DNA of 64,000 bases from a virus (Duplodnaviria; Heunggongvirae; Uroviricota; Caudoviricetes). Made by a program: the position numbers and the translations under genes. The stretch is taken from the IMG/VR virus record IMGVR_UViG_3300029702_000002; one strand, written 5' to 3'. A model generated the notes under the pieces. That model was not told the DNA's origin and ran no database searches. It saw only the letters and a list, made by a program, of their open reading frames with translations. Of this stretch, positions 909-63,801 are shown in pieces; position 1 is the stretch's first letter, and each line of letters starts with the position of its first letter.

Positions 909-1010
909 ATGACAATCACCGAGTTACGCCGATGCACTGTATAAGTAAACAGTATATTAGGCATAGATTCTTATAGGATCAAGAGTAAAAGTAACTCATT
1001 TTCAGCAATG

Positions 1011-3729: not shown

Positions 3730-3805
3730 TGGTGCCGGTTAACGGATTCGAACCGCTGACATCCTGCTTACAAGGCAGGTGCTCTACCAACTGAGCTAAA
3801 CCGGC
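3730..3805 (-). tRNA. tRNA-Thr (anticodon UGU), CCA encoded
   Basis: Acceptor GCCGGTT/AACCGGC, D-arm TAGCTCAGTTGGTAGAGC, anticodon loop CUUGUAA, T-loop TTCGAAT. Confidence 0.9.
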
Positions 3806-3807
3806 AT

Positions 3808-3882
3808 TGGCGATGGTGGGTGGATTCGAACCACCGACCAGTTGGTTAACAGCCAACTGCTCTACCGCTGAGCTACACCATC
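3808..3882 (-). tRNA. tRNA-Asn (anticodon GUU), CCA encoded
   Basis: Acceptor GATGGTG/CACCATC, anticodon stem GTTGG/CCAAC with loop CUGUUAA, T-loop TTCGAAT; 2 nt from tRNA-Thr. Confidence 0.85.
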
Positions 3883-59265: not shown

Positions 59266-59281
59266 AAGAATGGTTGCTTAA

Positions 59282-61315
59282 TTACTTAACCTGGTGGCCT
59301 GGTTTAGCACCAGCATCCGGGCTTAACAGGAAGATATCTTTCCCGCCGGGGCCAGCAGCCATCACCATGCCTTCGGAGATACCGAAGCGCATTTTACGCG
59401 GAGCCAGGTTGGCCACCATAATGGTGTGACGACCAATCAGTGCCTGTGGATCTGGATAAGCGGAACGAATGCCGGAGAAGACATTACGTTTTTCGCCACC
59501 GAGATCCAGCGTCAGGCGAAGCAGTTTGTCAGAACCTTCGACAAACTCCGCGTTTTCAATCAGAGCCACGCGCAGGTCAACTTTGGCGAAGTCGTCAAAG
59601 GTGATGGTTTCCTGAATCGGATCATCTGCCAGTGGGCCAGTTACTGGCGCGGCAGCGGCTTTTACTTCCTCTTTGGATGCTTCCACCAGTGCTTCAACCT
59701 GCTTCATGTCGATGCGGTTATACAGTGCCTTGAACGGATTCACTTTATGGCCCAGCAGCGGTTGCTGGATACCATCCCAGGTCAGTTCTGTATTCAGGAA
59801 TGCTTCTGCACGTTCAGTCAGTTTCGGCAGTACCGGTTTCAGGTACGTCATCAGCACGCGGAACAGGTTAATGCCCATAGAGCAAATCGCCTGCAGATCG
59901 GCATCGCGCCCTTCCTGCTTCGCCACCACCCACGGAGCCTGTTCATCGACATAGCGGTTAGCCAGATCAGCCAGCGCCATGATTTCACGAATCGCTTTAC
60001 CAAATTCGCGGCTTTCCCATGCTTCACCAATCACTTCAGCAGCATCAGTAAAGGTTTTGTACAGTTGCGGGTCAGCCAGTTCGCTTGCCAGCACGCCGTC
60101 AAAACGCTTGTTGATAAAGCCTGCATTACGGGAGGCCAGGTTAACCACTTTGTTCACGATATCGGCATTCACGCGCTGAACGAAATCCTCCAGGTTGAGA
60201 TCGATATCATCAATGCGCGAAGAGAGTTTCGCAGTGTAGTAGTAACGCAGGCTGTCAGCGTCAAAATGATTCAGCCAGGTGCTGGCTTTAATAAAGGTGC
60301 CGCGAGACTTGGACATCTTCGCACCGTTCACCGTCACATAGCCATGAACAAACAGGTTGGTCGGCTTGCGGAAATTGCTGCCTTCCAGCATGGCAGGCCA
60401 GAACAGGCTGTGGAAGTAAACGATATCTTTACCGATGAAGTGGTACAGCTCGGCGGTGGAGTCTTTCTTCCAGTATTCGTCGAAGCTGGTAGTGTCGCCG
60501 CGTTTGTCGCACAGATTCTTGAAGGAACCCATGTAGCCAATCGGCGCGTCCAGCCAGACGTAGAAATATTTGCCCGGTGCGTTCGGAATTTCAAAACCGA
60601 AGTACGGCGCATCGCGGGAGATATCCCACTGTTGCAGGCCAGATTCAAACCACTCCTGCATTTTGTTTGCCACCTGCTCCTGCAACGCACCGCTGCGGGT
60701 CCATGCCTGCAACATTTCGCTGAAAGAAGGCAGATCAAAGAAGAAGTGTTCGGAATCACGCATTACCGGCGTAGCACCAGAAACTACCGATTTCGGCTCG
60801 ATCAGTTCAGTCGGGCTGTAAGTAGCGCCGCAGACTTCACAGTTATCGCCGTATTGATCCGGTGCTTTACATTTCGGGCAGGTGCCTTTCACAAAACGGT
60901 CCGGCAGGAACATGCCTTTTTCCGGATCGTACAGCTGAGAGATGGTGCGGTTTTTAATAAAACCGTTCTCTTTCAGGCGAGTATAGATAAGCTCGGACAA
61001 CTGACGGTTCTCTTCGCTGTGCGTCGAGTGATAGTTGTCATAGCTGATGTTAAAGCCTGCAAAATCAGTCTGGTGTTCCTGACTCATTTCGCCAATCATC
61101 TGTTCCGGTGTGATACCAAGCTGCTGTGCTTTCAGCATGATCGGTGTGCCGTGGGCATCGTCGGCACAGATGAAATTAACCTCGTGGCCGCGCATTCGCT
61201 GGTAACGAACCCAGACATCAGCCTGGATGTGCTCCAGCATATGGCCGAGGTGGATTGAGCCGTTAGCGTACGGCAGCGCGCACGTCACCAGAATTTTCTT
61301 CGCGACTTGGGTCAT
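59282..61315 (-). CDS. metG: Methionine--tRNA ligase
   Basis: Translation from [25 protein letters not shown] (HIGH motif), KMSKS motif, C-terminal ...AKPGHQVK; start placed at internal Met 44 of the 720-aa ORF to give the 677-aa enterobacterial MetG. Confidence 0.95.
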
Positions 61316-61472
61316 AGTAGGCATTACTTCTTTGTAGTGAAAAGGGGCTTGATAGTAACAAAATGGCCTTATGTCTGCCATGTGATAACAGCATTTCTCA
61401 TAAATGATTAAATGTCGTAGCTGGAGTACACTACAAGGCGACAATTGCGCAAATTAAAATAAAGGAGACGGG

Positions 61473-62573
61473 ATGAGCGAGTCCAAATCGCCGGATGCCC
61501 TGAGAGCAATGGTAGCCGGTACGCTGGCTAATTTTCAGCACCCAACCCTGAAACACAACCTGACTACGCTTAAAGCGTTACACCATGTTGCGTTGATGGA
61601 TGACACACTGCATGTCGAACTAATCATGCCTTTCGTGTGGAATAAGCCTTTTGAAGACCTGAAAGAGCAATGTAGTGGTGATCTGCTCCGTATCACTAGC
61701 GCAAAGGCTATTGACTGGAAGCTGTCGTACAACATTGCCACGCTTAAGCGCGTCAAAAACCAACCAGGCATTAATGGCGTGAAGAACATCATTGCGGTCA
61801 GCTCCGGTAAAGGCGGCGTGGGTAAATCCTCCACGGCGGTAAACCTGGCGCTGGCGCTGGCGGCTGAAGGTGCGAAAGTTGGTATTCTGGATGCCGATAT
61901 CTACGGGCCATCAATTCCAACCATGCTGGGCGCGGAAAACCAACGTCCAACCTCACCGGACGGTACTCACATGGCACCTATCATGTCTCATGGCCTGGCA
62001 ACCAATTCAATTGGCTATCTGGTCACCGACGACAATGCAATGGTGTGGCGTGGACCGATGGCCAGCAAGGCGCTGATGCAGATGTTGCAGGAAACACTGT
62101 GGCCTGATCTGGACTATCTCGTTCTCGATATGCCGCCGGGCACTGGTGATATTCAGTTGACGCTGGCGCAGAACATTCCTGTAACTGGTGCGGTTGTGGT
62201 AACTACGCCGCAAGACATCGCGCTGATCGATGCGAAGAAAGGCATTGTGATGTTCGAAAAAGTCGAAGTGCCGGTACTGGGTATCGTCGAAAACATGAGT
62301 GTGCATATTTGCAGTAACTGCGGTCATCACGAGCCAATTTTTGGCACCGGTGGCGCACAGAAACTGGCCGAGAAATACAACACGCAGTTGTTAGGCCAAA
62401 TGCCACTTCATATCTCTCTTCGTGAAGATCTGGATAACGGAACACCAACCGTTATTAGTCGTCCAGATAGCGAATTTACGGCTATTTATCGTGACCTCGC
62501 AGATCGCGTTGCTGCCCAAATGTATTGGCAAGGTGAAGTAATACCTGGCGAAATCGCATTCCGCGCAGTGTGA
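61473..62573 (+). CDS. apbC: Fe-S cluster carrier ATPase ApbC/Mrp
   Basis: AVSSGKGGVGKSSTAVNLALALA Walker A and CxxC motif; near-identical to enterobacterial Mrp by recall; divergent from metG as in E. coli. Confidence 0.95.
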   Translation: MSESKSPDALRAMVAGTLANFQHPTLKHNLTTLKALHHVALMDDTLHVELIMPFVWNKPFEDLKEQCSGDLLRITSAKAIDWKLSYNIATLKRVKNQPGINGVKNIIAVSSGKGGVGKSSTAVNLALALAAEGAKVGILDADIYGPSIPTMLGAENQRPTSPDGTHMAPIMSHGLATNSIGYLVTDDNAMVWRGPMASKALMQMLQETLWPDLDYLVLDMPPGTGDIQLTLAQNIPVTGAVVVTTPQDIALIDAKKGIVMFEKVEVPVLGIVENMSVHICSNCGHHEPIFGTGGAQKLAEKYNTQLLGQMPLHISLREDLDNGTPTVISRPDSEFTAIYRDLADRVAAQMYWQGEVIPGEIAFRAV

Positions 62574-62575
62574 TA

Positions 62576-62600
62576 AAAAGGCGGTGCATTGCACCGCCTA
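62576..62600. terminator. Bidirectional terminator hairpin (AGGCGGTGCATTGCACCGCCT) between apbC and the UmuD'-like gene
   Basis: GC palindrome flanked by A-run and T/A-rich sequence. Confidence 0.55.
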
Positions 62601-62610
62601 ATCAGTTCTC

Positions 62611-63000
62611 CTACATCACGGGACAATCATCAAACTCGCCACTTCTTGCGTCGTTGATAATGTGAGTGATCACACCAAACACGGCATTGCTGCCCGTGCA
62701 TCCATCGTCATCCTTTGGCAATGCTTCCTTCTTACCGGTTCTTAAATCCTCCAGATGCTGACGTGGGTACTTCCGGTATCTTTTTACGCGATATTCCCCA
62801 TCCAGAGCGCATACAAGCAGAGAACCATCAACCGGGGTAAGTGAGGAATCGACCACCAGCAATGCACCCTGTAATATTCCCTCACGATGATGACTATCAG
62901 CTGCCCTCATGAAGTAGGTCGCTGAAGGATGTCTAATTATCTGCTGATCAAGAGAAATACGGCTCTCAGCATAATCCGCCGCAGGAGAAGGGAAGCCCAT
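62611..63000 (-). CDS. UmuD'-like (S24 peptidase-fold, pre-processed form) protein, apparently lacking Ser/Lys dyad
   Basis: 129-aa product starts MGFPSPAADY (UmuD begins ...CGFPSPAADY after its cleavable N-terminus); SGDSM region replaced by AADSHH; no umuC partner downstream. Confidence 0.65.
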   Translation of the reverse strand: MGFPSPAADYAESRISLDQQIIRHPSATYFMRAADSHHREGILQGALLVVDSSLTPVDGSLLVCALDGEYRVKRYRKYPRQHLEDLRTGKKEALPKDDDGCTGSNAVFGVITHIINDARSGEFDDCPVM

Positions 63001-63016
63001 AATACTCGCCTCTTAA

Positions 63017-63036
63017 TACTGTATGCACATACAGTA
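63017..63036. promoter_or_regulatory. LexA (SOS) box TACTGTATGCACATACAGTA
   Basis: CTGT-N8-ACAG consensus, 17 bp upstream of UmuD'-like start codon. Confidence 0.8.
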
Positions 63037-63662
63037 TATATTGAAGCTATATATTTTTGAACTCTATCTCTTAAAAAAGATGTTAATAAGATGCTAACTA
63101 TTGAAAGGCATAAATATATACAATTCAAACAAACGTTATTTTTAACAAATTTTTTCTTCCCATTGACTTTTTCAAACGCCTTGTCCGGTCTAAAGTGCGC
63201 AGAAGTCACTTTTTCCTTCCTGAGTTATCCACAGGCTTATGCACTTGCATGAAAAATCTATTCACACTATCTTAATTCGCAAGACACTGATGTTGCAGTA
63301 TTGAGGGTATGTTGGGTTAAAAATAGACATTAAAAAGCCCAGTTGACTAGGCTGGGCTTTTTAAAAGGAAACAGAGTTTGCGGCTCTGTTCCTGAGCCAT
63401 AAGTATCTGGCGACTGAATTAAGATTAACCGAATGTACTGGATTCATCAAGAAACGTTGAGTGGTCATACCAGGTAATAATGACCATTTACTAAACATCG
63501 TTGTTCTCAAAGAAGATTTAAGTCCAGGTTTTTGGTGACTCTAAAACCTTACCTTAACTCGAAATCGTGCCGTAAGTATCTGGCGACTACAGATATTGCA
63601 ACTGCAAAGGCAAGCCCAAAGGTATTTGCAGCTAGGCGCGATAAAACTAAGTGAGGCCTGTT

Positions 63663-63746
63663 ATGGTTAACTTACTGTTCAAAATCGTGCCGCCGATGTT
63701 CGCGATTATCAAAGCGATCATTGAGTACGTAAACCAGCGTCCATAA
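63663..63746 (+). CDS. Candidate small hydrophobic peptide (27 aa, MVNLLFKIVPPMFAIIKAIIEYVNQRP)
   Basis: Short ORF with GTGAGG site; speculative. Confidence 0.2.
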   Translation: MVNLLFKIVPPMFAIIKAIIEYVNQRP

Positions 63747-63801
63747 CGCTAGTTGCTACAGGCCCCATCAAGAGCATGGGGCCTCTTTATCGTACTATTG
63801 C

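Follow-up and report, generated by a model that had tools for sequence, protein, structure and literature searches.

The gene at positions 62611 to 63000 (minus strand) of the 64-kb window, by which we mean the whole stretch of DNA analyzed here, is very probably humD of an SSU5-like E. coli phage-plasmid, a HumD-family gene whose SOS-induced product would serve as a ready-made UmuD′ and work together with the UmuC protein of the host. An orphan, SOS-controlled, and pre-processed UmuD′ is as such already known, having been described for the HumD protein of phage P1 in 1999, and the RefSeq name of the window protein is likewise already "HumD family translesion DNA polymerase."

The humD reading frame is intact, consisting of 129 codons plus a stop in the list of open reading frames, with an in-frame stop five codons 5′ of its ATG; the 129-aa product reads MGFPSPAADYAESR...SGEFDDCPVM. 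This protein matches the NCBIfam equivalog model NF051876 ("HumD family translesion DNA polymerase") from end to end (219.8 bits versus a cutoff of 120; protein residues 1 to 129 on profile positions 1 to 129 of 129), while the NCBIfam model for the UmuD subfamily gives 87 bits, which is under its cutoff of 110. Pfam assigns the protein to Peptidase_S24 and PHROGs to "UmuD-like protein," and the best structure matches are to UmuD′ (1UMU, E = 6.7e-23; 1I4V) and UmuD (8GMT). Since an AlphaFold2 model built on a 35-sequence family alignment proved unusable (mean pLDDT, 45.9; pTM, 0.36), the fold assignment rests on these sequence matches to solved UmuD′ structures. HumD is identical to CYRAN_98 of Escherichia phage Cyrano and 91.5% identical to P1 HumD at the amino acid level, and the same protein on ∼110-kb E. 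coli plasmids goes by the RefSeq names "HumD family translesion DNA polymerase" or "S24 family peptidase." The full-length family match and the close similarity to P1 HumD bear out the original prediction in so far as it saw a pre-processed UmuD′ analogue of the phage and plasmid type.

Alignment with UmuD and P1 HumD, proposed as a check on that idea, yielded ∼38% and 91.5% identity, respectively, and the same UmuD′ start. Specifically, residues M1-G2 of HumD align with C24-G25 of UmuD, the site of RecA-mediated cleavage; the product indeed begins where UmuD′ begins and has no cleavable pro-segment. HumD thus has in common with E. coli UmuD/UmuD′, the accessory subunit of Pol V (1UMU, 1I4V, 1AY9), the same domain (E ∼1e-22 over residues 2 to 118), the Ser and Lys positions, the UmuD′ N terminus, and a LexA box upstream of the gene. 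It differs from UmuD in that it lacks the 24-residue pro-segment, and hence the RecA-dependent activation step, as well as in its degraded GDSM motif, the lack of an adjacent umuC, a 4-residue insertion ahead of the last strand, and a conserved, acidic C-terminal extension of 10 residues. A passage in PMC7092418 describes HumD as an already activated, shorter UmuD, and as an exception to the general rule that accessory subunits of the UmuD type need to be cleaved for activity.

With regard to the Ser/Lys dyad, which the protein had been thought to lack, the original prediction needs to be revised. Both HMMER and MAFFT alignments place S36 of HumD on S60 of UmuD and K73 on K97. The degradation is limited to the surrounding GDSM motif, which reads A-DSHH in HumD, one residue being deleted where the Gly would stand. 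Two dyad residues in place, together with the Pfam Peptidase_S24 match and database records that name such proteins "LexA family transcriptional regulator" or "S24 family peptidase," could be taken as signs of S24 peptidase activity or of a LexA-like regulatory role, in which HumD would cleave itself, host UmuD, or LexA, or else repress genes. We consider this highly improbable. The 129 residues correspond to the C-terminal (S24) domain only, with no N-terminal winged-helix DNA-binding domain, and the lexA model TIGR00498 matches HumD at model positions 91 to 166 only, with 27 bits against a cutoff of 111; a LexA-like repressor was rejected for lack of a DNA-binding domain. As for peptidase activity, no N-terminal segment is left to be cleaved off, since HumD starts right at the Gly of the old site, and the degradation of GDSM likewise speaks against it.

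The conservation of the two dyad positions adds to this argument. In a MAFFT alignment of 123 sequences, composed of the best 120 of the 561 protein clusters that match HumD at E ≤ 1e-5 plus window HumD, UmuD, and P1 HumD, the position of K73 is almost invariant (Lys in 120 of 123) and in itself compatible with catalysis, whereas the nucleophile position (HumD residue 36; window 62893 to 62895) is occupied by Ser in 78, Thr in 43, and Ala in 2 sequences, within a family consensus of x-[ST]-H-[FYH]-R. Given this Ser/Thr/Ala mix and the absence of a substrate segment, we read the pattern as relaxed selection on catalysis in the HumD family, and because the Lys is nearly invariant while the Ser position varies, the Lys may owe its conservation to something other than proteolysis. 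Ser60 was reportedly dispensable for mutagenesis in an engineered UmuD′ studied by Nohmi and colleagues in 1988.

The control region of humD contains a LexA (SOS) box, TACTGTATGCACATACAGTA on the plus strand at 63017 to 63036, which corresponds to the 20-mer TACTGTATGTGCATACAGTA on the humD coding strand (63036 to 63017) and is separated from the humD ATG by 16 nt. With its CTGT-N8-ACAG core and 17 of 20 positions in agreement, it is the sole site in the 64 kb within three mismatches of the consensus TACTGTATATATATACAGTA; none of 100 dinucleotide-preserving shuffles contained a site that close, and the box is beyond chance. It is identical in 19 of 20 positions to the SOS box of K-12 recA (TACTGTATGAGCATACAGTA, read from MG1655), of the same type as the box of K-12 umuDC (TACTGTATATAAAAACAGTA), and placed like the annotated LexA site 5′ of P1 humD. 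The strong LexA box that had been noted just 5′ of the gene is therefore confirmed.

A consensus scan further revealed a sigma-70 promoter-like site at 63033 to 63061 (minus strand; TTCAAA, a 17-nt spacer, and TATACT), a pattern match of a kind that is no more frequent in this region than in shuffled sequence, and from which we infer the transcription start. Its −10 hexamer, TATACT, overlaps the LexA box in the first four bases of the latter, an arrangement consistent with LexA repression at 63017 to 63036. Direct reading also identified a Shine-Dalgarno sequence, GAGG, at 63009 to 63012 (minus strand), 8 nt 5′ of the humD ATG.

At the other end of the gene, a terminator scan found a terminator-like hairpin at 62579 to 62599 (minus strand; a 9-bp stem with seven G-C pairs, followed by TTTTAT). 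The hairpin starts 11 nt past the humD stop codon and lies between humD and the convergent apbC, so that humD looks like a self-contained, monocistronic unit. Comparison with P1 humD (85.5% nucleotide identity) gave a dN/dS of 0.05 at a dS of 0.80, values which show that humD is held under strong purifying selection and is not decaying. The opposite view, that humD is a functionless remnant of umuDC left to decay after umuC had been lost and umuD truncated at its 5′ end, could point to the missing partner polymerase and to the absence of the first 24 umuD codons. It is barely conceivable, though, for a gene that has its own promoter-like site, LexA box, Shine-Dalgarno sequence, ATG, and terminator-like hairpin, and whose product fits a curated equivalog model from end to end and is matched by 561 protein clusters (E ≤ 1e-5), the best 120 of which are nearly all 123 to 130 aa long and share a common start. 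A decaying umuD pseudogene was rejected on the grounds of the dN/dS value and the full-length family match.

As to a partner polymerase, none is encoded downstream, where the hairpin is followed by convergent apbC, just as the original prediction had it. To look beyond the immediate vicinity, we ran tblastn with K-12 UmuC (from MG1655) against both the 64-kb window and the complete 108-kb Cyrano genome, which returned no homologue (best E = 0.16), nor does the Cyrano annotation list a Y-family polymerase. An intact dyad and a umuC homologue farther downstream had been named as findings that would count against an orphan UmuD′; the dyad residues are in fact intact, while a umuC homologue is absent from the window and from the complete Cyrano genome.

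We then considered 39 related loci taken from species-representative genomes, 29 of which belong to the HumD family. The pre-truncated start is seen in 28 of these 29 loci, and 27 match the query essentially over its full length. In none of the 29 does a UmuC homologue occur within 6 kb. One or two LexA boxes are present ≤70 nt upstream in 18 of them, typically at −37, or at −63 and −39. Judging from these numbers, the combination of a LexA box with an orphan, pre-cut UmuD′ is a property of the family and not a peculiarity of the window. Since the remaining 11 of the 29 loci have no recognizable box, SOS control is not universal in the HumD family. Among the more distant relatives in the set, three (L036, L038, and L041) have UmuC immediately downstream.

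Some chromosomal and prophage HumD-family genes show a two-box arrangement. Tandem LexA boxes lie 63 to 65 and 38 to 41 nt upstream of humD at five loci (L010, L011, L012, L021, and L022), and at two others (L008 and L009) there are also two boxes, the proximal one being degraded.

The closest characterized counterpart is P1 HumD (AAQ14181), which has the same length of 129 aa, the same start (MGFPSPAADY), and the same C-terminal tail, and whose gene has a LexA box at the same upstream place and is likewise not in an operon with umuC. The carriers are different, P1 being a P1-like myovirus phage-plasmid and the window an SSU5-like siphovirus phage-plasmid, and so are the surroundings: P1 humD is flanked by lxr upstream and phd-doc downstream, whereas window humD has upstream non-coding DNA with a fragment resembling ypaB and the region upstream of nrdA, plus a candidate type I toxin-antitoxin locus, and convergent apbC downstream. 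A tblastn search with P1 lxr found no homologue in the window or in Cyrano. The two boxes differ in their central bases (ATAAATGA in P1 versus ATGTGCAT in the window). In an alignment of P1 with the window, the related DNA extends from about the LexA box to the humD stop codon, with essentially unrelated flanks, so that LexA box and humD travel as one cassette, which is common to two unrelated phage-plasmid backbones, P1-like and SSU5-like. In the GenBank record of P1, HumD is said to be one that "functionally complements E. coli UmuD′," and a LexA site is annotated for lxr/humD.

Other mobile elements also carry UmuD-family genes, which allows the window gene to be placed in a wider context. 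The mucAB, impCAB, rumAB, and samAB loci of plasmids and integrative and conjugative elements (ICE) are SOS controlled and combine, in one operon, the gene of a full-length UmuD-like protein that can be cleaved with a Y-family polymerase gene of their own. Window humD is unlike these in that it is pre-truncated and comes with no polymerase of its own. Nearer relatives are found in N15 (gp26), ΦKO2, HK140, BTP1, and other temperate phages, whose UmuD-like proteins belong to the HumD family with 60 to 71% identity over nearly the full query length, on the different backbones of linear-plasmid, lambdoid, and P22-like prophages.

Taken at face value, these features would fit the following sequence of events. 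In an undamaged cell, host LexA would sit on the operator overlapping the −10 hexamer and the likely transcription start, keeping humD off. Upon DNA damage, RecA filaments would form and promote LexA self-cleavage, releasing synthesis of a monocistronic humD mRNA. Because the product begins at the residue that forms the N terminus of UmuD′ after cleavage, HumD is predicted to be active as made, with no need for RecA-mediated processing. By analogy with P1 HumD, and resting on the 91.5% identity to it, the protein should then dimerize and bind RecA filaments as well as UmuC from the host chromosome, which we assume to be present; borrowing of the host UmuC polymerase is the most likely mode of action. 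The result would be a Pol V-like translesion polymerase formed without the delay caused by slow UmuD cleavage, which could help both damaged phage-plasmid DNA and damaged host DNA to replicate. For P1 HumD itself, McLenigan and colleagues reportedly observed, in the Journal of Bacteriology in 1999, that cells defective in umuD regained mutagenesis and survival after UV when it was present and that the protein dimerized and interacted with UmuC as well as with RecA filaments, although it is said to have complemented well only when overexpressed. Both P1-like and SSU5-like elements are frequent in clinical E. coli, where they may contribute damage-induced mutagenesis.

Alternatively, HumD might act as a "polymerase manager" which binds the alpha, epsilon, and beta subunits of Pol III, in the replisome of either the host or the element, and modulates how the element replicates under SOS conditions. 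Several observations are compatible with such a role: the element has no UmuC; the Cyrano genome has genes of its own for Pol III alpha and an epsilon-like exonuclease (CYRAN_49 and CYRAN_77); P1 humD lies near hot, which encodes a Pol III theta homologue, with only lxr in between; and both UmuD and UmuD′ are said to bind alpha, epsilon, and beta, as reported by Sutton and colleagues in PNAS in 1999. Nonetheless, we regard this role as distinctly unlikely, given that the P1 orthologue is on record as complementing UmuD′ and that this complementation reportedly depends on UmuC. We thus favor a HumD that joins host UmuC in the manner of UmuD′.

One part of the protein is nevertheless not accounted for by simple UmuD′ mimicry, namely, its strongly conserved C-terminal tail. 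HumD-type proteins run 10 residues past the end of UmuD, and this tail, SGEFDDCPVM in window HumD (residues 120 to 129; 62614 to 62643, minus strand), has no counterpart in UmuD or UmuD′. Five of its residues are strongly conserved in the 123-sequence alignment (best 120 of 561 clusters plus 3): E122 in 119 sequences, F123 in 118, D124 in 119, D125 in 114, and P127 in 118. In a library of representatives at 50% identity, and by a tail rule defined after the sequences had been seen, an acidic tail with a hydrophobic end occurs in 9 of the 24 homologues that are pre-truncated but in none of the 56 that have an N-terminal extension (Fisher p = 5.6e-6). Variants include EFDDxPVM, EFDDTPF, EFHDNLPF, and EEFDAEPFLI, and the tail resembles the protein-interaction tip at the C terminus of E. 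coli SSB, which ends in ...MDFDDDIPF.

It is tempting to speculate that the HumD-type tail mimics the SSB tip, a notion we put forward as unlikely on present sequence resemblance yet of some consequence if true. Such a tail could tether the phage-made UmuD′ to a host protein that binds the SSB C terminus, or to a factor whose usual ligand at stalled forks is SSB. The N-terminal arm of UmuD carries a contact to the beta clamp, and tethering of this kind would compensate for the arm that HumD is missing. Orphan HumD would then be more than a simple pre-cut UmuD′, and its tail, if functional, a small addition to how mobile elements tap host translesion synthesis. A literature search for phage mimics of the SSB tail, the scope of which did not extend to the primary HumD and P1 genome papers, returned nothing on HumD or its tail.

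The assignment of humD to a phage-plasmid follows from the window as a whole. The entire window is colinear with Cyrano/pLF82, in reverse orientation and across the ends of the Cyrano sequence, at mostly 97 to 98% nucleotide identity. In E. coli LF82, Cyrano is known as the phage-plasmid pLF82; this SSU5-like siphovirus has a copy number of ∼5.5 per cell (PMC9928086). Its 108-kb genome has annotated terminase, capsid, and tail genes along with ParA/ParB, RepA, DnaE, and nrdAB. The K-12 chromosome is similar to the window only at positions 59281 to 62569, which hold a divergent metG-apbC (mrp) pair at 89% nucleotide identity (MetG, 99%, and ApbC, 94.5%, at the amino acid level); the homology stops at the two gene ends, and the gene that follows mrp in K-12 is yehE. 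From the colinearity and the confined K-12 similarity, we conclude that metG-apbC is a block of host DNA captured by a mobile element and that humD is an accessory gene of that element. This reverses the initial view of humD as a second acquired element beside a chromosomal apbC, and with it the first reading of the window as chromosome: it is the metG-apbC pair that is the captured piece. A chromosomal island next to apbC was rejected in view of the colinearity of the whole window with the phage-plasmid. With the captured pair, the SSU5-like phage-plasmid carries a second gene for methionyl-tRNA synthetase along with one for an Fe-S carrier.

Several other features of the window deserve brief mention. 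A search of the whole window with Rfam at gathering thresholds detected two tRNAs and nothing else; their genes lie at 3733 to 3805 and 3811 to 3882 (both minus strand; 76.5 and 75.5 bits) and map to a Cyrano cluster annotated as tRNA-Asn, tRNA-Thr, and tRNA-Ser.

Just 5′ of humD is a candidate type I toxin-antitoxin locus that is unannotated in the related records we checked, with elements at 63329 to 63410 (minus strand), 63396 to 63415 and 63569 to 63588, 63663 to 63746 (plus strand), and 63760 to 63784. It comprises a 27-aa hydrophobic open reading frame, MVNLLFKIVPPMFAIIKAIIEYVNQRP, with a GAGG Shine-Dalgarno sequence and its own terminator-like hairpin, and a divergent small-RNA candidate which matches Rfam AgrB over the full length, below threshold (27.6 bits versus a gathering score of 40; E ∼0.02), and which ends in a bidirectional terminator-like hairpin. 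By virtue of a 20-nt direct repeat (19 of 20 positions identical), the small-RNA candidate would be complementary to the 5′ UTR of the small open reading frame. This layout matches that of the SOS-regulated dinQ-agrB locus, whose DinQ is also 27 aa long. The 27-aa peptide matched no PHROG family and shows no similarity to DinQ, and a blastn comparison of K-12 dinQ-agrAB with the DNA 5′ of humD gave no significant similarity.

Between the LexA box and the small-RNA candidate, non-coding DNA at 63135 to 63273 (and 63063 to 63252) is ∼83% identical to the chromosomal ypaB region, a similarity that is present in all 5426 complete E. coli genomes; ypaB itself lies just upstream of nrdA. The segment carries a DnaA-box-like sequence, TTATCCACA, near 63223, and P1-like plasmids such as NZ_AP018798.1 have an 84%-identical counterpart ∼1.5 kb 5′ of their humD gene.

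Finally, a second LexA-box-like site, CACTGTATAAGTAAACAGTA, is present at window positions 935 to 954, with the CTGT-N8-ACAG core and four mismatches to the consensus. It lies 27 nt 5′ of a gene that starts at position 908 on the minus strand and is an integrase in the Cyrano annotation, such that the recombinase of the element may be under SOS control as well.
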